Below, in pieces: positions 53,811 through 62,128 of a stretch of 64,000 nucleotides of DNA; within the stretch, counting starts at the first letter, position 1, and every line of letters begins with the position of its first letter. The notes below the pieces were generated by a model. It searched no databases. It saw only the letters and a program-made list of their open reading frames with translations, and was not told the origin of the DNA. The position numbers were made by a program, and so were the translations under genes. The DNA is from Thermofilaceae archaeon. Lineage in GTDB: Archaea > Thermoproteota > Thermoprotei > Thermofilales > Thermofilaceae. The stretch spans positions 1 through 64,000 of the forward strand of contig JAWCCZ010000003.1 in assembly GCA_038861545.1 (NCBI GenBank). The letters are read 5' to 3'.

Positions 53811-54129
53811 TCTCTTGTTAAAAACCTCTTTGATTTCCAGCAAACCTGAACACAGCATGTGGAACGGCATTCAACAGCGAACACTGGACGCAGTTTATAC
53901 GGGTGGGCCAATATATTTCGGAGCGAATCAGAAGTTTCCAGAAAGTGGTACTGGTACAACTCTAGTCTTGGCCAATCATTATAACACTGCCATACTTTCA
54001 CTGACTACAATGATATCACAATGCAGATTGCACGATATCGCAGGTTACTTGAATAAAACCGAGGTTTTAGGTGGCTAGCTTATGCTATACGTTTATTAGG
54101 GGTACACTTCTCTCGTGTACTATTAATGA

Positions 54130-54157
54130 TATAAAAAATTTATAAATTCTATATATT
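54130..54157 (+). promoter_or_regulatory. Putative BRE/TATA promoter of the hydrogenase operon
   Basis: AAAAAATTTATAAATT (purine run plus TTTATAAA, itself a 12-bp palindrome) about 45 nt upstream of ATG 54192. Confidence 0.45.
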
Positions 54158-54191
54158 GCACCTTAATAAGAGTCTGCTTAAGGCGTCCCTG

Positions 54192-54707
54192 ATGGAAGGC
54201 GTTAAGGAGAACAAGGTCGGTTGTACCAGCATAGACGAGCTTTTTCAGGGGTTAAGAAGGGAACCTCATAATTTGCTTGAAGCGCTTAGAAGGGTGCAGG
54301 CTCGTCACGGGTACCTGCCGCTTGAGGGGATTAAGAAAGCTGCTGAGTATGTAGGAGTCCCATTAGCTCAAGCTTATAGTGTCGCTACATTTTACCATCA
54401 ATATAGCTTAGAGCCAGTGGGTAAGTACAGAATACTTGTGTGCATGGGTACTGCTTGTCATCTTCGTGGTAATAATTTAAACATAGAATTTCTGCGTACT
54501 ATGCTAGGATTAAAATCGGGTCAGAAAACTACAAGTGACGGTATTTTTTCGGTAGAGGAAGCTCGTTGCTTTGGTTGCTGCGGGCTCGCCCCGGTCGTGG
54601 TAGTTCAACATTCTGGCGGTAAAAACGAGATAGTAGGTAGGGCAAACGCGCGAACGCTAAGGGCAGTTATAACGAAATACAGGAAGCTCGAAGGGGGTGC
54701 GGACTAA
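54192..54707 (+). CDS. HydC/NuoE-like [2Fe-2S] subunit
   Basis: YSVATFY, VCMGTACHLRG, CFGCCGLAPV. Confidence 0.92.
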   Translation: MEGVKENKVGCTSIDELFQGLRREPHNLLEALRRVQARHGYLPLEGIKKAAEYVGVPLAQAYSVATFYHQYSLEPVGKYRILVCMGTACHLRGNNLNIEFLRTMLGLKSGQKTTSDGIFSVEEARCFGCCGLAPVVVVQHSGGKNEIVGRANARTLRAVITKYRKLEGGAD

Positions 54708-56696
54708 ATGTCATGGAGTTTATTAGATAAATGTTGTGAAAAATGCAAACATTCACTAGAAACCCCGTGTCCAGATGTTATAGAGTGTTCGTTAAATGGT
54801 CCATTATGTCACAGTAATGAAGAATGTGTTCAGAAAAGAAAGGTTAGAATTGAGCAGCTGCATTACGGAGAAAAGGGGGCTAAAATCAAAGTACCATGGA
54901 CAAGCTGCACACTTGCTACGGGTGCGGAGGCAATCTACCAGGTAGTTGTTGACTACATCTCAAAAAAAGGATTAGATATAACCGTGTCAATCTCCGGTTG
55001 CTATGGTCTTGATTTTATCGATCCTTGGATTGAGTTTACAGCAAAGGATATGCCCACAGTCGTCTACGCTAACGTTAAAGAAAGCAGCGTGCCGAAGCTC
55101 ATAGAAAAGTACTTTGTAAATCGAGACGTTAGCGGGGCTTTTGCGCTTAAAGAGCGAACCGGCAACACTAAAGGCGAGGATCAGATACCCTTGCTCAGCG
55201 AGTTAGATTTCTGGAGGAAGCAGTACAAATGGGTTTCTCGAAACTGTGGCATAGTCAATCCAGAGTCGCTTGAAGAATACATAGCTTCAGGCGGCTACAA
55301 AGGGCTTAGCAAAGCTCTAAAAATAGGGCCGGATGCCGTTATAGATGAAATTCAGAAAAGTGGATTGAGGGGGCGAGGTGGCGCAGGTTTTCCAACAGGC
55401 TTAAAGTGGAGAATAACAAGACAGCAACGCGCTACACCGAAGTATGCTATAGCTAATGCTGATGAGGGCGATCCAGGCGCGTTTATGAATAGATTGCTAG
55501 CAGAGTCTGATCCCTTCAGAATTGTAGAGGGGTTAACAATAGCTGGCTATGCTGTTGGTGCTAGCAGGGGCTTCATTTTCGTGCGGGCTGAAAAACCTTT
55601 AATGGCTAGGAGATTACAGAGAGCAGTTGAAGAGGCCAGAAAGTATGGCTTACTGGGTATGAATATTCTTAGCTCGGGCTTCAATTTCGATATAGAAGTG
55701 ATACTCAGCGCTGGAGCTTTTGTGTGTGGTGAAGAAACAGCGCTTATCGCCGCTATTGAAGGTAAAAGGGCTTGGCCTCGGCAACGGCCACCCTATCCAG
55801 CTGAAAAAGGATTATGGGGCCAACCTACAGTGATAAATAATGTAGAGACACTAGCTCATGCGGCTACGATTATGGCTGAAGGTGCAGAGAAGTTCTCTGC
55901 TTTAGGTAGCGATAAAACAAAGGGTACGAAAATGTTCTGTGTTACTGGGACGGTCAAAAGAACGGGTGCGTATGAAGTGCCAATAGGAGTTACTATCCGA
56001 ACCCTTGTTGAAGAGTTAGCGGGAGGCGCGCCAGAGGGGGCAAAGATTAAAGCAGTACAGATAGGAGGGCCATCGGGTGGCTGCATACCAGCTTCGCTCT
56101 TAGATTTACAAGTAGATTATGAAACCCTACAAAGCGCTGGTGCTATAATGGGAAGCGGAGGTGTAGTCGCCATTAGCGATGAGAACTGCATGGTTGATGC
56201 GGCCAAGTTTTTCCTAACATTCACATCGGCAGAGTCCTGCGGAAAATGTATACCTTGCCGAGTGGGGTTACGAGTAATGTGGAGCATTCTAGATAAAATA
56301 ACGCATGGCAAAGGTCAAGAAGGTGATTTAGAGATCTTAAAACAGCTCGCCGAGACTGTTCGAACCACAAGTTTGTGTGCTCTAGGAGGGACTGCACCGA
56401 ACCCAGTACTTTCCACGCTCCGCTACTTTATGGATGAGTATGAAGCACATATCAAAGAAAAAATATGTCCTGCAAATGTATGTGCTACACTGATTACTTA
56501 CTCGATAGATGAAAATATATGTATAGGTTGCGGGCAATGTGCAATGAATTGTCCAACAAACGCTGTATCAAAACTTGTAAGCGGTAAGTACTCTATAAAT
56601 CAAAATTCATGCATTAAATGTGGAACTTGCTATATAATTTGCCCAGTAAGGGCTGTGAAAAAAGCTAGCGGTTCAGGAGGTGGTAGAAATGGTTAA
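54708..56696 (+). CDS. HydB/NuoF-like FMN/NAD(P)H-binding diaphorase subunit with a C-terminal 2[4Fe-4S] ferredoxin
   Basis: SGLRGRGGAGFPTG, NADEGDPGAF, FVCGEETAL, ESCGKCIPCR, SLCALG, H....CP...C, two CxxCxxC..CP. Confidence 0.93.
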   Translation: MSWSLLDKCCEKCKHSLETPCPDVIECSLNGPLCHSNEECVQKRKVRIEQLHYGEKGAKIKVPWTSCTLATGAEAIYQVVVDYISKKGLDITVSISGCYGLDFIDPWIEFTAKDMPTVVYANVKESSVPKLIEKYFVNRDVSGAFALKERTGNTKGEDQIPLLSELDFWRKQYKWVSRNCGIVNPESLEEYIASGGYKGLSKALKIGPDAVIDEIQKSGLRGRGGAGFPTGLKWRITRQQRATPKYAIANADEGDPGAFMNRLLAESDPFRIVEGLTIAGYAVGASRGFIFVRAEKPLMARRLQRAVEEARKYGLLGMNILSSGFNFDIEVILSAGAFVCGEETALIAAIEGKRAWPRQRPPYPAEKGLWGQPTVINNVETLAHAATIMAEGAEKFSALGSDKTKGTKMFCVTGTVKRTGAYEVPIGVTIRTLVEELAGGAPEGAKIKAVQIGGPSGGCIPASLLDLQVDYETLQSAGAIMGSGGVVAISDENCMVDAAKFFLTFTSAESCGKCIPCRVGLRVMWSILDKITHGKGQEGDLEILKQLAETVRTTSLCALGGTAPNPVLSTLRYFMDEYEAHIKEKICPANVCATLITYSIDENICIGCGQCAMNCPTNAVSKLVSGKYSINQNSCIKCGTCYIICPVRAVKKASGSGGGRNG

Positions 56697-57342
56697 AGTA
56701 AAAATTAATGGAACAATTATCGAAGTTGAACCTGGGACCTCAGTACTAGCTGCGGCTGAGAAAGCGGGTTTAAGGATTCCCCACCTTTGCGCAGTCAAAG
56801 ATATTTATGAAGGTGCTAGCTGTAGGCTATGCTTAGTTAAAACCCCGACGGGACGTCTCTTTCCAGCCTGTGCTTACTATGTATACAGGGATGAGGAATT
56901 CATTAGCGATTCACCAGATTTGAAGATGACAAGAAAAGCAAATTTTGAATTTATTCTTAAGTTCCATAGAATGGAGTGCTGGCTTTGCCCACGCAAAGGT
57001 AACTGCATGCTAACCGAGTTATCAAAGGAATTGGCAGTCGAAGGAATCCCTGTATGTGCAGAGTGTCCTCTTTCTCCAGAAGAATGCCTGCTAACTAAGG
57101 GCGTGTCCTGTCTTGGACCGATTACAATATCCGGATGCAATGCAGAGTGTACCGAGAGTGGAGGACCATGTTGGGGCTGCCGTGGCCCAGTATCTAGAGC
57201 AGATGTGATTGAAAACGCAGTTTTACGCTATAGGGAGCTAGGGATAGATACAGACACAATTTTGAGAAAAGCTGATATTTTCTGGAATTCGCTCCCCGAA
57301 TTCGAAGTGGTGAAAAAGGTGTTTAACACGGTGAGAGTGTAA
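56680..57342 (+). CDS. Chimeric Fe-S subunit: HydA/NuoG N-terminal [2Fe-2S] and His-ligated [4Fe-4S] plus the C-terminal half of a group 3 [NiFe] small subunit
   Basis: IPHLC...SCRLCLV...PAC; H...C..C.....C; then VCAEC.....CLL..G..CLGPIT..GC.A.C...G.PC.GCRGP. The ATG may be 56689. Confidence 0.82.
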   Translation: MVEMVKVKINGTIIEVEPGTSVLAAAEKAGLRIPHLCAVKDIYEGASCRLCLVKTPTGRLFPACAYYVYRDEEFISDSPDLKMTRKANFEFILKFHRMECWLCPRKGNCMLTELSKELAVEGIPVCAECPLSPEECLLTKGVSCLGPITISGCNAECTESGGPCWGCRGPVSRADVIENAVLRYRELGIDTDTILRKADIFWNSLPEFEVVKKVFNTVRV

Positions 57343-58625
57343 TGAATGGCCAGAATAGCAGCTTAGTTATAGAAGAAATCCCAGCAGTTGCTGGACATGT
57401 TGATGTATACGTTGAGGGTAAAGAAACAGTTGTCCGAGTTAAGTTTAGTGTTACTCAGGATCCCAGGTTCTTCGAACGTTTTCTTAAAGGACGACCAAGC
57501 GTGGAAGTACCGTACGTAATGTCACGTATATGTGGTGTTTGCAGCATTGTACACTTAACTTGTTCAATAGATGCTATAGAAAAAGCGCTCGGCGTTGAAC
57601 CGAGTGAAGAAATCCTCAAACTTAGGAAGCTAGCTAAGGGCCTAGAGGTAATCCAGAACAACTTAGTACATGTTTTAATGTCTTTGCCGGATTTCACAGG
57701 TTGCAACGATGTTGTAAGTTTTTCCAAAGGCTACCAAAACATTTTCAATAAGTTGATGAACACTAATAGGCTAGCACTAGAAGCTTACAAAAGGATCTGT
57801 GGGAGATTCGTTCACACTCCAACTCTAGGTGTTGCAGCGCACAGTAAGCCGGTAAGCAAGTACGAGCTAGAGTCAGCGGGTAAACTGCTTCATACAGTAG
57901 CTAAAGAGCTTGAAGAGATGGTCAGTGATTTGGCAGAAATATGGAGGCCTCTTGCGGAAGGATTTAGCGATCCGGCGCCTACTTACTGTGTTTTAAATAG
58001 CGATGAAGAGTACCCCCTATTTAGCCCGAGCTTATTGTTTTCTGACGGAGTAACAGTCCCCGTCGAGAAATATAGTACTGTTATAGAGGAGTTAAGATCC
58101 CCCTACTCCAACGCTCATTATACCCTTTATAGAAACGGGGCTTTTTATAGTGGATCCAGGGCAAGGATTCAAGCATATTCAAAAATTATCGGCAGCGAGA
58201 TCTCGGCGATAACGAAAATGTTGAGTATAGATCCCAGCAATCCATTCGATAATGTAAAAGCGCAATATATAGAAGTAGTTTATTTATCAAGTTTCTTAGG
58301 TGATTTGGCTTTTGATCTAGCCGAGGAATTCCGAGGAGGCATAAGCCCCTCTCACGTCGCATACTCTAGTGGAAGCGGTGAGGGAGTAGCAGCTGCGACT
58401 GCTCCGAGAGGTGTCCTTATACACCATTATATCGTAAAGGGAGGTAAGCTAGAAAGCGCAAATATCATAACTCCTACAGTTATTAATGCAAGACATATGG
58501 AGGTAGCCGGTGAAGCTTTAGTTCGAAGGCTTGTGGAATGTGGTGAAAGTGAAAAAAGCATAAAAAGTATGGTAGCCGCGCTTGTAAGAGCTTACGATCC
58601 ATGTCTACCATGTGCTGTCCATTAG
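57342..58625 (+). CDS. [NiFe]-hydrogenase large subunit (group 3b-like)
   Basis: L1 RFFE..L.GR....SRICGVC; APRG.L.H.Y; L2 RAYDPCLPCAVH*. Confidence 0.93.
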   Translation: MNGQNSSLVIEEIPAVAGHVDVYVEGKETVVRVKFSVTQDPRFFERFLKGRPSVEVPYVMSRICGVCSIVHLTCSIDAIEKALGVEPSEEILKLRKLAKGLEVIQNNLVHVLMSLPDFTGCNDVVSFSKGYQNIFNKLMNTNRLALEAYKRICGRFVHTPTLGVAAHSKPVSKYELESAGKLLHTVAKELEEMVSDLAEIWRPLAEGFSDPAPTYCVLNSDEEYPLFSPSLLFSDGVTVPVEKYSTVIEELRSPYSNAHYTLYRNGAFYSGSRARIQAYSKIIGSEISAITKMLSIDPSNPFDNVKAQYIEVVYLSSFLGDLAFDLAEEFRGGISPSHVAYSSGSGEGVAAATAPRGVLIHHYIVKGGKLESANIITPTVINARHMEVAGEALVRRLVECGESEKSIKSMVAALVRAYDPCLPCAVH

Positions 58626-59918
58626 GTGATGAGTATGAAGGTAGCATTTTTCTCATTCGGAGCATGTGAAGGTTGCAGGTATAGGATGGTGAACGAGCTT
58701 TCTAGGATACTCAGTATAGATGGTATTGAAATAGTAAGGGAGCCCTTACTCGGGTTAGCTTCTGAAGATGAGTACGATATAGCTGTGGTGGAAGGCGCGT
58801 TAACCTCCCACGATATGGAAAAATGCAAGGAAATCAGGAGTAAGGCAAAGTATGTAATAGCTTTAGGAAGCTGTGCATACCTTGGCGGAATTACTACATT
58901 AGGGTATAAGTATGGTTTTCAAGCTGAAGAATACATTAAGAGGGGTTACAAAGAATCCATTCCACTTCAGCGAGTAATAGGCGTTGACAACTACGTTAGA
59001 GGTTGTCCCGCCAGCATTGAAGAACTAGCTAATGTTCTGAGGGAGATAATTACTTCCGGTGCATTGCCTAGATATGAGAGAAGGTTCGAGTTTGAAAAAA
59101 TCTCAAGCATCGTGTTAAAAGATGAGTTCCTTAAATTAGATACAGGTAAGTGTATCGTCTGCGGAAGATGTGTTGAGATTTGTTCCCAGATAAATGTGCA
59201 CGCACTAACGCAAGCCTTTCGGGGATTCCGAGTGATCGTGAGCACTCCTGGTCAACTGAGTTTCCTCGAAGCCGGTTGTATACATTGTGGGCTTTGTGCA
59301 GCTATTTGTCCAGTAGGAGCTGTGACTTATAGAAGTGACATAGAGGCATCATTGAAAGCCATCCGCTCTGGTGCTAGTGTAGTAGCCGAGATCACGGCTC
59401 TAGATGCGGCAGCTAAAGCTCTTGGTGTAGAGACTGGGCAGACGGTATCTTTGCTTAAGCAACTTGGAGCGTCTAACGTTAAAGTAGTGGATCCAATAAA
59501 TTTAGTTACGAATAAAGTTGGCATAGTGCCATTCAGTGTAGCTGAGGAAAGATGGATAAAAGTTATCTATCCTCAGGCTAGCGAATACCTTCTTCAACGA
59601 CCAATACTAAATGCTCAAGGCGTTCTGCTAATCACTGCTTGTGCTTCCAGGAAGGAAGAGCATACACCAACTTTAACGGCGCACGAGTTAACCATCTTGG
59701 CAAAAGGATGCGGCTTAGTCTTAGAGGATCTGCCGGCAGTTAATTTTGATTTTCAACCCGCTTCTAGATCAAACCTAAGAGTAGTTAAAGGTCCAAGCGA
59801 ATCTACCGAAGCTATACAAGAATTCTTAGAATCACCTACCCATACGTTAGTAGTGCAACTTTGCCCTATGGGTTGCGAAAAAGGATCTGGCATTCCATTT
59901 AAATTGCTTAACAGATAG
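58626..59918 (+). CDS. Chimeric subunit: [NiFe] small-subunit N-terminal domain + HydA-type 2[4Fe-4S] + degenerate [FeFe] H-cluster-like domain
   Basis: CEGC, VEG, GSCA..GG, RGCP; KCIVCGRCV..C, CIHCGLC...CPVGA; TACASRKEE..TLTAHEL and QLCPMGCEKGSG. Confidence 0.8.
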   Translation: MMSMKVAFFSFGACEGCRYRMVNELSRILSIDGIEIVREPLLGLASEDEYDIAVVEGALTSHDMEKCKEIRSKAKYVIALGSCAYLGGITTLGYKYGFQAEEYIKRGYKESIPLQRVIGVDNYVRGCPASIEELANVLREIITSGALPRYERRFEFEKISSIVLKDEFLKLDTGKCIVCGRCVEICSQINVHALTQAFRGFRVIVSTPGQLSFLEAGCIHCGLCAAICPVGAVTYRSDIEASLKAIRSGASVVAEITALDAAAKALGVETGQTVSLLKQLGASNVKVVDPINLVTNKVGIVPFSVAEERWIKVIYPQASEYLLQRPILNAQGVLLITACASRKEEHTPTLTAHELTILAKGCGLVLEDLPAVNFDFQPASRSNLRVVKGPSESTEAIQEFLESPTHTLVVQLCPMGCEKGSGIPFKLLNR

Positions 59919-59993
59919 GTAAAAATTGGAAAATTTTATTTATCAGTATTTAACTCAAAACTCATTTAGACACAATATCGAAGGGGGATTCTC

Positions 59994-61379
59994 GTGGTGG
60001 AGGGCTTCAAACAGCTACGAAGCGCGCCGCGCGGCTTCAAAGTCAGTATAATAGAAGGTGCATTGACTGTTTTCGGGTCCTCGTTAATCGGACCCATGGT
60101 AACGCCGCTTCTGATACGCCTGGGAGCAGATGCCGGCGTCATTGGTTTATACACCGCATTGGTCTCTACAACTACACCTCTGATGCAAATTTTAGCTGCT
60201 TTAATCTTAGATAGGTTTCGTGAACACCGGCTTCTTATAATGACTTCCTTCGCCGGAGTTAGCAGAATCTTATGGTTTGGTGTCCTATTAACAATTTTAG
60301 GTGTTTGGGGAGATCTCTGGACAGCCATAGCTTTACTCGGTCTTTCTAATGCCATAGGGGTTTTATCTAGCTTAGCATGGACGGATATAATGGCCGACTT
60401 AGTCGAGGCTAGGGAGAGAGGGCGTTTATTCGCAATTAGGAATACGTTGCTTGGCCTCATTAACTTAATGAGTCTCATCTTTGCAAAAGCTATATATGAT
60501 CGGTTAATGTATCCACAAGGATATGTGATAGCCATTACACTTGGGGCCTCTTTCATGTTAGCTGCAACGCCTTTACTTTACCTCTATGGGGATCAAGTTA
60601 AGCCTAAAGGTATTGGCTTAGGATTAAAAGGCGTTGCAGCGGCCTTTAAAGACAGGCAAGTACTCAAGGATTCTTTCTCCCTATCGTTCTGGAACTTTAC
60701 GGTTAGCATGGTAGGCGGAGTATGGAATTACCATATGTACGTGGCCTACGGAGCTGACGAAATCTGGTTTACTACTTTGAACTTAGTAGCCGGGCTAATA
60801 GGTATAGTAGCAAATCCTCCATGGGGATCTTTTTATGATAGGTTTGGTCCGAGAACTACTTTCATCCTATCTGGTTTGGGAATAGTTGCGGTACCCATTC
60901 TATTTCCCTTTTTACCAAGCCTAGCCAGCCAAGCAGCGTTACAAATGTACTCTACATTTGTATGGAGTGGATTTAACTTGGCTGCGTTCAATTATGCTCT
61001 GTCCTATGGATCTGAAGCTCGACATTTATACATAGCAGTTTATAACACAATTCCTTCATTGTTTTCTGCCCTCGGTACACTGACAGGAGTCCAAATCTAT
61101 GATAGGGCAACAGTTTGGGTATTTTTTATCTCTGGAGTTGGAAGAATATTTGCATTAACTGTTCTGTATCAGACCTCCTCATCAAGAGGGTTAGCATATG
61201 AGGAACTAAAGGTTCTCAGCAATCTTTATCCTATTTTTTTAACTACACGCGCATTAGCGGTTTATGCTTATGCGGAATTCATTCTGGCATTAAAATTACT
61301 CTATGCTGCTTTGCTAACAGTACTAGTACTCTCGGCACTAGCCGGACTATTTATAATACTCAAGGTAATAGCCCTATAG
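59994..61379 (+). CDS. MFS transporter
   Basis: 12+ hydrophobic segments, DLVEARERGR.F, WG.FYDRFG.R. Confidence 0.88.
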   Translation: MVEGFKQLRSAPRGFKVSIIEGALTVFGSSLIGPMVTPLLIRLGADAGVIGLYTALVSTTTPLMQILAALILDRFREHRLLIMTSFAGVSRILWFGVLLTILGVWGDLWTAIALLGLSNAIGVLSSLAWTDIMADLVEARERGRLFAIRNTLLGLINLMSLIFAKAIYDRLMYPQGYVIAITLGASFMLAATPLLYLYGDQVKPKGIGLGLKGVAAAFKDRQVLKDSFSLSFWNFTVSMVGGVWNYHMYVAYGADEIWFTTLNLVAGLIGIVANPPWGSFYDRFGPRTTFILSGLGIVAVPILFPFLPSLASQAALQMYSTFVWSGFNLAAFNYALSYGSEARHLYIAVYNTIPSLFSALGTLTGVQIYDRATVWVFFISGVGRIFALTVLYQTSSSRGLAYEELKVLSNLYPIFLTTRALAVYAYAEFILALKLLYAALLTVLVLSALAGLFIILKVIAL

Positions 61380-61387
61380 GTGGAGAA

Positions 61388-62128
61388 ATGCCGGGTGACA
61401 GCATAGATATCATTAATGTTTTATTGAATGAGCTTAGAAAGATAGGAGTAGAGTACTTAACCACCGTAATATTCGTACTTCCGCGCATACTGGGCATGGC
61501 TTTAATACTGATAGCTGGGTGGCTGCTAGGTAGACTGACAGGTAAATTGATAGCAGCTTTTGTGAAAATTAGTAAAGCTGATGATGCACTGCATGGAACA
61601 CCTCTTGGCGTTTACCTCAACAAAGCTGGATATTCCCTTTCTAGTTTGCTAGATCTAGTAACCAGAGCTAGTGTTTATATCCTCACCATCGCCTTAGCTC
61701 TCCGAGTATTACAGGTCCCAGAGGCCACGTCTGCTGCAGATGCTCTTCTCCAATTAGTTGGACGCCTCATCTTGGGTGCAATCATACTTACAATCGGACT
61801 CTTCGTCGTGGAAAAGGTGATAGGAGTTGTCAGTAGGGTCCTGGAAGGCAATCACGAAACGTCAATAGCGTTGGGAGTTACCCACGCTATTTTGTTGGCC
61901 ATAATTATTGCTGCGGCTGCCTCGAGCGTGGGCGTAGATTTGAGCCCGATCGTTGTGGTGCTTTCCTCAGTTGCTTGGGGGGTGGGCGCCGGAATCGGCT
62001 TCGCAATTGTACTCGTCACGCTCGCACTATTGAGAGAAGAGTTAAGTTATCTCTTTAAGGCATTTATTATGGCTCTGCGGTATCAATCCCGAGAACCGAA
62101 TAAACAATCCAGTAACGATTCAGGGTAA
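61388..62128 (+). CDS. Conserved TM-helix membrane protein (MscS-associated TM_helix-like)
   Basis: LPRILG.ALIL.AGWLLG repeat-type helices; no cytoplasmic MscS domain. Confidence 0.65.
   Translation: MPGDSIDIINVLLNELRKIGVEYLTTVIFVLPRILGMALILIAGWLLGRLTGKLIAAFVKISKADDALHGTPLGVYLNKAGYSLSSLLDLVTRASVYILTIALALRVLQVPEATSAADALLQLVGRLILGAIILTIGLFVVEKVIGVVSRVLEGNHETSIALGVTHAILLAIIIAAAASSVGVDLSPIVVVLSSVAWGVGAGIGFAIVLVTLALLREELSYLFKAFIMALRYQSREPNKQSSNDSG

Follow-up and report, generated by a model that had tools for sequence, protein, structure and literature searches.

An archaeal hybrid hydrogenase operon of Thermofilaceae with a shrunken [FeFe] H-domain and a putatively bifurcating flavin module

The operon and its closest described relatives

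Archaeal enzymes that combine [FeFe] and [NiFe] hydrogenase parts were brought together by Greening et al. 2024 (Cell 187:3357, PMC11216029), the available text of which defines group F [FeFe]/group 3f [NiFe] hybrids as a HyhS–HydA fusion accompanied by HydB, HydC, a four-cluster HydD and HyhL. The same text places the hybrids in 21 genomes, with Thermoproteia among the carriers, gives Thermoplasmatota UBA147 and Thermoplasmata SG8-5 Th1/Th2 as exemplars, and reports that one Thermoplasmata fusion (Th1) made H2 after artificial maturation. It also states that the H-cluster cysteines are conserved in group F and that maturases are missing from some archaea that have [FeFe] hydrogenases; an exchange of domains between HydA and the small subunit, which we consider below, is not described in the text as available. 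The second close system is bacterial, the NiFe-HydABCSL enzyme (NiFe-Bfu) of Acetomicrobium mobile, whose structure (7t2r; Feng et al. 2022, PMC8880783) has a terminal Fe–S position at the site equivalent to the H-cluster. The underlying BfuBC concept comes from Schut et al. 2022 (PMC9304861), and that survey mentions archaeal NiFe-Bfu enzymes only for Halorhabdus. Here we describe a locus with features of both systems, located at positions 54192–59918 on the forward strand of a 64,000-nucleotide stretch (the window) from a Thermofilaceae archaeon (assembly GCA_038861545.1, contig JAWCCZ010000003.1, positions 1 to 64,000). A literature search on bifurcating hydrogenases of Thermofilum and on 'group 3f' returned nothing beyond Greening et al. 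2024.

The locus consists of five open reading frames (ORFs) on one strand, tightly packed and abutting or overlapping by a few bases, in the order hydC-hydB-hydD-hyhL-fusion (translations P0001 to P0005). This is a genuine five-gene operon of the archaeal 'hybrid' hydrogenase type. An original prediction, made from the letters of the window alone, had proposed five such genes with a particular domain anatomy and had named NiFe-HydABCSL and the group F hybrids as the closest known systems; the ORFs and the Pfam and NCBIfam matches bear out the anatomy, and both systems were correctly named. The same C-B-D-L-fusion order is found at 22 other archaeal loci, so that the arrangement is not due to chance. 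Purifying selection acts on all five genes, with ratios of non-synonymous to synonymous substitution (omega) of 0.04–0.11 against a same-genus ortholog, values which are rough given that dS is near 1.

The resemblance to group F/3f is close. The same five proteins are present, a PF01058 N-terminal domain and an H-domain tail lie on one chain, and HydA and the small subunit have swapped parts. The operon type is already published and the window copy is not a new class. Its form of the operon occurs widely among Thermoproteota, Asgard and other archaea, including Wolframiiraptor-type and Archaeoglobales-type lineages. Whereas all H-cluster cysteines are conserved in group F according to the available text of Greening et al., the window fusion keeps only C339, C413 and C417.

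A profile search of 1.8 billion representatives, together with alignments, separates the fusion proteins into size classes. Long forms (563–580 aa, one cluster being named Thermoplasmata) have a full H-domain with S-W-C-P at the first cluster-binding motif, L1; intermediates (476–520 aa) have S-W-C-K/R there, a small group has I-P-C-C or I-P-C-S, and short forms (426–480 aa), to which the window copy belongs, have no L1 cysteine. We find that short and long forms are split by four linked traits. The window H-domain is of 190 aa and lacks the L1 cysteine, whilst that of the long form is full size. The proton-gate glutamate of HyhL is missing in the window and retained in the long form as ARIEGH or ARVEGH. 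The window HydB is a 662-aa BfuB-type protein, whereas its long-form counterpart is plain NuoF-like, with 413–431 aa. Finally, the order hydC-hydB-hydD-hyhL-fusion contrasts with hydC-hydB-fusion-hydD-hyhL in long-form operons.

We lean towards reading the operon as coding for a soluble five-subunit hydrogenase of the NiFe-Bfu type, in which the [FeFe] scaffold serves as wiring and which would couple NADH and ferredoxin to H2. It would be an archaeal counterpart of the bifurcating NiFe-HydABCSL enzyme, assembled on the group F/3f hybrid scaffold. HydB and HydC would provide the Bfu-type core, with flavin mononucleotide (FMN), NAD(H) and ferredoxin coupling. The C-terminal half of HydD would lie next to HyhL and the N-terminal domain of the fusion, making the [NiFe] small subunit complete, and the N-terminal half would pack on the ferredoxin domain of the fusion, rebuilding a HydA-like cluster chain. 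The H-domain, its [2Fe] site lost, would survive as a conserved structural module, probably with a [4Fe-4S] cluster, and any production or uptake of H2 would take place at the NiFe site. A fermentative thermophile would probably use the enzyme to produce H2 from NADH and reduced ferredoxin, a reaction that should be reversible.

Two reciprocal chimeras and an H-domain remnant

HydD (56689–57342, +, 217 aa) joins parts of two hydrogenase lineages, as NCBIfam matches to FeFe_hydrog_A6 (1–122) and ShyD (156–237) indicate. Residues 5–128 correspond to the HydA/NuoG N-terminus, that is, a Fer2_4 domain with [2Fe-2S] ligands C37, C48, C51 and C64 and a NuoG domain with a His-ligated [4Fe-4S] cluster (H96, C100, C103 and C109). 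In the Protein Data Bank (PDB), this part aligns with residues 4–128 of Acetobacterium woodii HydA1 (7q4v_A, E 1e-21). Residues 123–215 correspond to the C-terminal part, with two clusters, of a small subunit of group-3 [NiFe] enzymes (sulfhydrogenase delta); they have eight invariant cysteines from C126 to C167 and align with residues 161–256 of the delta subunit of Pyrococcus furiosus sulfhydrogenase I (PfSHI; 9nez_A, E 4e-13). The chimeric Fe–S subunit of the original prediction is thus real. None of the 16 ligand positions varies among 19 orthologs, some of which are long forms.

The fusion protein (P0005, ∼430 aa) carries the complementary parts. Its first part (58635–59105, +) is a [NiFe] small-subunit N-terminal, or proximal-cluster, domain, recognised by PF01058 (Oxidored_q6 in the Pfam scan; residues 14–140, E 5.9e-22); residues 4–148 match MvhG (5odc_E), A. 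mobile HydS (7t2r_E, 4–169) and PfSHI delta (4–144), and the ligands of the proximal cluster are C14, C17, C83 and C127. The second part (59106–59345, +) is a linker followed by a HydA-type 2x[4Fe-4S] ferredoxin domain with matches to Fer4 families, its ligands being C176, C179, C182 and C186, and C218, C221, C224 and C228. These eight cysteines are invariant in 19 sequences that include a bacterial HydA, and all 12 ligands of the proximal and ferredoxin clusters are invariant among the aligned orthologs. The best PDB stretch for the fusion is residues 153–273 against 123–247 of Thermoanaerobacter kivui HydA1 (8a6t_A, E 5.6e-20). We also considered the ferredoxin domain as a medial/distal domain of the FrhG type, given that FrhG and VhuG models align with residues 4–231 and 4–257. 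This was rejected, since the domain fits HydA1 far better, in an alignment that continues into the H-domain, and the true C-terminal half of the small subunit is located on HydD.

These alignments put the break in HydA at about residue 125 and that in the small subunit at about residue 150, with each of the two genes carrying one half of either protein. The exchange is reciprocal, because HydA residues 4–128 lie in HydD and those from 123 onward in the fusion, whilst PfSHI delta residues 4–144 lie in the fusion and 161–256 in HydD. Over the full length, the window HydD and long-form HydD share 40% identity, and the swap is therefore a family-wide trait.

A predicted three-chain complex of HyhL, fusion residues 1–240 and HydD gave an interface score (ipSAE) of 0.90, compared with 0.48 for the best control; of 80 solved complexes, 58 attain the mark applied to this score, as do 2 of 110 mismatched pairs. 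Three model runs agree in at least 92% of contacts, with a predicted local distance difference test (pLDDT) score of at least 89 for the partners. In the model, HydD residues 137–205 contact HyhL and the fusion N-terminal domain, with C167 adjoining C127, and HydD residues 36–122 contact the ferredoxin domain (fusion residues 147–234). Because the chains are halves of families with solved complexes, this result may partly reflect likeness to solved hydrogenases, and we take it as support rather than proof of the arrangement.

The third part of the fusion (59346–59918 with the stop codon, +) is a shrunken H-domain of ∼190 aa. A profile built from the tails of 16 relatives finds solved [FeFe] H-domains with an E-value of 1e-13 in three collinear pieces. 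An AlphaFold model of the tail by itself has a pLDDT of 92.4 and a predicted template modelling (pTM) score of 0.89, and a fold search independent of Foldseek matched it over all 195 residues to [FeFe] hydrogenases only, with Z-scores of 15.0, 13.3, 13.2 and 11.5 and the next match at 4.8. From profile and model together, the tail is a true H-domain derivative, as had been predicted, and not a domain unrelated to that fold. PF02906 (Fe_hyd_lg_C) has no match at E ≤ 1 in the fusion or anywhere in the genome, and it recognises seven of the 16 relatives, with a best E-value of 2e-6; given the clear outcome of the profile and fold searches, we do not take this null result to speak against descent from an H-domain. 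A. mobile HydA (7t2r_A) was listed neither by the tail-profile search nor by a wide fold search, which is a matter of absence from those two lists only.

The remnant keeps three of the four cluster cysteines, C339, C413 and C417, which correspond to C355, C499 and C503 of CpI in motifs L2 and L3. At L1, canonically TSCCPxW, the TSCCP is replaced by P-x-S-x-A-E, in which S304, A306 and E307 are invariant; across 44 short-form sequences the L1 cysteine is absent and the Ser304 position invariant. L2 reads TACASRKEE (canonically MPCxxKxxE) and L3 reads LCPMGCEKGSG (canonically ExMxCxxGCxxGGG), and the proton-transfer cysteine is likewise absent from the short-form H-domain. Compared with the long form and with bacterial HydA, ∼70 residues are missing between L2 and L3 and ∼60 after L3, so that the domain is about half its normal size, with ∼45% of the length gone. 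What is left is under purifying selection, with an omega of 0.17 against 0.03–0.08 for the other two fusion domains in the same-genus comparison. The remnant probably holds a [4Fe-4S] cluster through the three cysteines and either Ser304 or Glu307. In one other short-form member (Thermofilaceae archaeon SKYB99, L010:7965–9284), L1 reads V-P-C-S-I-A-E, with a cysteine directly before the conserved serine that is possibly a regained ligand.

The distance from enzymes that work at an H-cluster can be read from these comparisons. With the HydABC enzymes of Thermotoga maritima (7p5h), T. kivui (8a6t) and A. woodii (7q4v) the operon shares homologous HydB and HydC, and the HydA N-terminus, ferredoxin domain and H-domain are recognisable and collinear. 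It differs in that HydA is split, the H-domain lacks L1, a [NiFe] large subunit is inserted and no HydE, HydF or HydG was found. The window fusion thus differs from a catalytic HydA in its L1–L3 motifs, which lack the four-cysteine set, in the missing PF02906 match and in the maturases not found in its 92% complete genome. Closer is the A. mobile enzyme, likewise a BfuBC core with a group-3 [NiFe] module and no working H-cluster (PMC8880783, PMC9304861), in which HydB resembles 7t2r_B, the one-cluster HydS (7t2r_E) resembles the fusion N-terminal domain and 7t2r_D resembles HyhL. There, HydA is a single 692-aa chain (A1–A5) and HydS is separate, whereas in the window both are split and their halves exchanged; moreover, the window has a medial/distal-type two-cluster domain, on HydD, and a C-terminal domain with a true H-domain fold.

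The flavin module, the NiFe site and the alternatives

HydC (54192–54707, +, 171 aa) is a thioredoxin-like [2Fe-2S] protein of the NuoE/HydC/HoxE/BfuC type (PF01257, E 2.8e-39, with HoxE and NuoE NCBIfam matches), and its gene has an omega of 0.07. HydB (54708–56696, +, 662 aa) is recognised through Pfam, NCBIfam and PDB matches. It comprises a CCxxC prefix (∼1–52), a thioredoxin-like N-terminal domain, a NuoF-type FMN/NADH core with a [4Fe-4S] cluster, a CPANVC motif and a C-terminal 2x[4Fe-4S] ferredoxin. Residues 60–652 align with structurally characterised bifurcating BfuB subunits at E-values of 1e-176 to 1e-201. The best match is Caldicellulosiruptor saccharolyticus-type NfnB (9n5u_B, E 1.6e-201); A. 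mobile NiFe-HydB (7t2r_B) follows with an E-value of 2e-192 over residues 14–596 of its 597, and the HydB proteins of A. woodii, T. kivui and T. maritima also match. The alignment takes in the CPAxxC motif and the C-terminal ferredoxin domain, which the original prediction had singled out as typical of bifurcating enzymes, while non-bifurcating NuoF proteins align with the core alone, at ∼1e-112. The operon thus holds the BfuB and BfuC features (FMN/NADH core, CPAxxC and C-terminal 2x[4Fe-4S] in the former, the [2Fe-2S] cluster of HydC in the latter), and we call the enzyme putatively bifurcating because HydB aligns over nearly its full length with bifurcating BfuB; this homology is also the one ground for the bifurcation that had been predicted. 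The prefix, HydB residues 1–52 (54708–54866), is itself the 'CCxxC NuoF prefix' of NCBIfam NF040902 (E 2.8e-17) with seven cysteines; most short-form operons keep it, but four do not, and the solved BfuB structures lack it too.

HyhL (P0004; 57342–58625, +, 427 aa) is a group-3 [NiFe] large subunit on the strength of PF00374 and ShyA/HydA-alpha NCBIfam matches. Both CxxC pairs are intact, as predicted: RICGVCSIVH supplies C64 and C67, and DPCLPCAVH supplies C421 and C424. The metal-binding pairs are invariant in 16 orthologs, and R62, H71, R416, D419, P420 and H427 are invariant too. The best PDB match is PfSHI alpha (E 8e-40), and P. furiosus sulfhydrogenases I and II (group 3b; 9e15, 9nez, 5yxy) are the nearest characterised relatives for the full-length large subunit and for the small subunit. 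To that extent the predicted 'group 3b-like' label stands, but the NCBIfam score is far below the equivalog cut-off (171 bits against 700). The window also departs from the sulfhydrogenases in having no beta and gamma partners, in spreading the small subunit over two genes and in replacing the glutamate of RVEG with alanine ('arvegkg' opposite 'pavaghv' in the alignment).

HyhL ends exactly at His427 of DPCLPCAVH, without a C-terminal extension. The 20 other clusters that end likewise all read xVAGx at the gate, and the remaining short forms carry 6–12 extra residues. The solved PfSHI alpha chain also ends at the CxxCxxH histidine. A HycI-type protease was not found in this 92% complete genome, which comprises 1.63 Mb in 12 contigs.

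The same genome contains HypC, HypD, HypE and HypF, and nothing over the cut-offs for HydE, HydF or HydG, with the proviso that in an assembly of this completeness absence is not proof. HydG is absent from all 28 genomes examined, incomplete ones among them, that is, 23 genomes of the family and five other carriers. Two membrane-bound group-4 [NiFe] loci with intact CxxC pairs lie elsewhere in the genome. Their large subunits (L090, C4:87024–88199, −; L091, C1:543000–544193, +) are NuoD-like and sit in Nuo/Mbh-like clusters, and both extend beyond the last cysteine, yet the genome yielded no HycI-type endopeptidase. HypD occurs in 22 of the 23 family genomes, with or without the operon, and so its presence does not tie the Hyp proteins to the hybrid enzyme. 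The prediction that H2 chemistry is done only at the NiFe site, the [FeFe] part being wiring, is largely supported by a remnant without the L1 cysteine and by the maturases that were looked for and not found; turnover at the NiFe site is nonetheless something that we infer, and as the site lacks its gate glutamate it is less certain than the prediction took it to be.

Several observations weigh against the reading we favour. The proton-gate motif RxEGH reads AVAGH (Ala17) in HyhL. In textbook [NiFe] enzymes the proton-gate glutamate is required for turnover, and NiFe catalysis is accordingly not assured here. Among 118 homologs compared, the position is A, F or V in 50 of 50 short-form clusters, whereas the glutamate is kept in 68 of 68 other group-3 homologs. 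The two group-4 enzymes need Hyp proteins as well and might be the only ones for which the Hyp genes are kept, and the 92% completeness of the genome weakens the argument from missing maturases. In HydB, the thioredoxin-like N-terminal domain has GCYGLD where relatives have GCxGxC. At three other loci (L014, L015 and L035) HydB lacks the C-terminal ferredoxin, and some orthologs lack the prefix domain, so that some members of the clade may not bifurcate.

An alternative that we consider unlikely is a redox enzyme in which both sites are degenerate, the H-site without its [2Fe] pocket and the NiFe site without its proton gate, and H2 is no longer turned over efficiently; it could act as an NAD(P)H:ferredoxin oxidoreductase, as a reductase of some other substrate, for example sulfur or polysulfide, or as an H2-sensing or -binding module. 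The loss of the gate glutamate in every short-form large subunit is what such an enzyme would show, as are the loss of the L1 cysteine with about half of the H-domain and the seven clade-specific replacements at otherwise fixed positions of HyhL (D105Q, S106N, L273R, I377T, N385H, S423P and S425A); furthermore, the nearest characterised large subunit is a sulfhydrogenase alpha. However, the four Ni/Fe-binding cysteines and the six further invariant residues listed above are untouched, and the omega of 0.11 for hyhL indicates strong purifying selection. Two of the replacements, giving the invariant His385 and Arg273, could form a substitute proton relay.

Another possibility, which we regard as quite unlikely, is a simple non-bifurcating soluble hydrogenase linked to NAD(P)(H), resembling Hox or sulfhydrogenase I, with the extra clusters acting as wiring only. 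HoxE, HoxU and NuoF-type NCBIfam matches point in this direction, as do the three HydB proteins without a C-terminal ferredoxin and the plain NuoF-like HydB of the long forms. On the other hand, the BfuB match spans nearly the full length of HydB whilst the much weaker NuoF match covers the core alone, and the CPAxxC motif and the C-terminal 2x[4Fe-4S] domain are kept in most orthologs. A true dual-site hybrid of the kind proposed for group F, whose small H-domain would bind an H-cluster-like cofactor and make H2 beside the NiFe site, is highly improbable: the H-domain fold and three cluster cysteines persist under purifying selection, and in the available text of Greening et al. Th1 was active after artificial maturation and some archaea with [FeFe] enzymes have no maturases, but the L1 ligand and proton-transfer cysteines are absent, as are the ∼70 and ∼60 residues around L3, PF02906 does not recognise the window fusion, HydG was not found in any of the 28 genomes, and the Th1/Th2 proteins tested there are from Thermoplasmata, a name borne by one cluster of the 563–580-aa long forms, which keep SWCP.

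Genomic setting, distribution and significance

A probable promoter, judged from the letters of the window, is the AT-rich, TATA/BRE-like stretch aaaaaatttataaattc (54120–54160, +), ∼45–55 nt 5′ of the hydC start codon. The hydC ORF is open from TTG 54156, and the TATA-like box at ∼54136–54148 agrees with ATG 54192 as the start. For hydD, open from GTG 56680, and the fusion gene, open from GTG 58626, ATG 56689 and ATG 58635 are the likely starts, chosen because homologs begin with MVKV and MKVAFF, respectively; a GGTGA lies 7 nt 5′ of the latter. Directly 3′ of the fusion stop codon, the T-rich stretch gtaaaaattggaaaattttatttatc (59919–59950, +) is a possible archaeal terminator.

The flanking genes are unrelated to hydrogenases. 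Upstream lie aIF5A, an eRF1-like gene and an FKBP gene, and downstream, at 59994–62128, a major facilitator superfamily transporter (461 aa) is followed by a small mechanosensitive-channel-like protein (246 aa). At three other Thermofilaceae loci (L010–L012) the operon is followed by ORFs of 460–472, 233–246 and 786–791 aa, which suggests a conserved downstream synteny with no obvious hydrogenase link.

The nearest named relatives of the window copy are Thermofilaceae metagenome-assembled genomes (MAGs). Of 23 genomes of the family, 10 carry the fusion gene, and none of these is among the eight of genus g9; since the closed genomes of the family all belong to g9, the gene was not found in any of its closed genomes. 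A quick maximum-likelihood tree made with IQ-TREE, with Shimodaira–Hasegawa-like approximate likelihood ratio test (SH-aLRT) support only and no reliable root, places 44 Cys-less sequences on one side of a branch with a support of 97. The I-P-C-C and I-P-C-S forms adjoin this clade, and the long and intermediate forms are set apart by a long branch. The Cys-less clade has an apparent single origin on this tree, and the gate glutamate was probably lost before the L1 cysteines, because the I-P-C-C form at locus L035 is already without the glutamate.

Two placements deserve mention in their own right. The Nitrososphaerota/Bathyarchaeia-type fusions at L035:7983–9440 and in P0053 (485–487 aa) read I-P-C-C-Y-S at L1, recalling TSCCP; they form a sister lineage of the Cys-less short form, and the partner large subunit reads SRVVGH. 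This lineage may mark the intermediate step or may carry a mini H-domain that is still active. An Archaeoglobales MAG (JZ_75_SW_bin_109, L024) has a complete short-form operon that groups in the tree with Desulfurococcales-type sequences, which suggests lateral transfer or a binning error.

Besides the four linked traits, three findings are new here: the Cys-less clade appears to have arisen once, the remnant evolves under purifying selection, and the swap now has a complex model. We tentatively suggest, as a possibility about which we are on balance doubtful, that in one ancient lineage a dual-site hybrid gave rise to the short form, which throughout the clade would be a bifurcating enzyme that works only at its NiFe site and has a rewired path for protons. 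The plain NuoF module would have been exchanged for a Bfu core and the otherwise universal glutamate gate of the NiFe site lost, with His385 and Arg273 as possible substitutes; afterwards, the H-domain would have been stripped to an Fe–S module with three cysteines and a serine or glutamate. If true, this would be an independent archaeal route to the architecture of the A. mobile enzyme, and it would allow one to ask whether the textbook glutamate is indispensable for [NiFe] catalysis.

The clade offers a stepwise record of the decay of an [FeFe] domain into an electron-transfer module, through long, intermediate, CC-containing and Cys-less forms. It also offers an instance of two hydrogenase lineages stapled together by domain swapping, and a conserved NiFe large subunit in which the canonical proton gate is missing. 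In genome surveys, hybrid hydrogenases are counted as [FeFe]. If the widespread short form has no H-cluster, the archaeal [FeFe] counts would be inflated in the Thermoproteota of hot springs and sediments, and the real enzyme there would be of the NiFe-Bfu type, coupling NADH and ferredoxin to H2.

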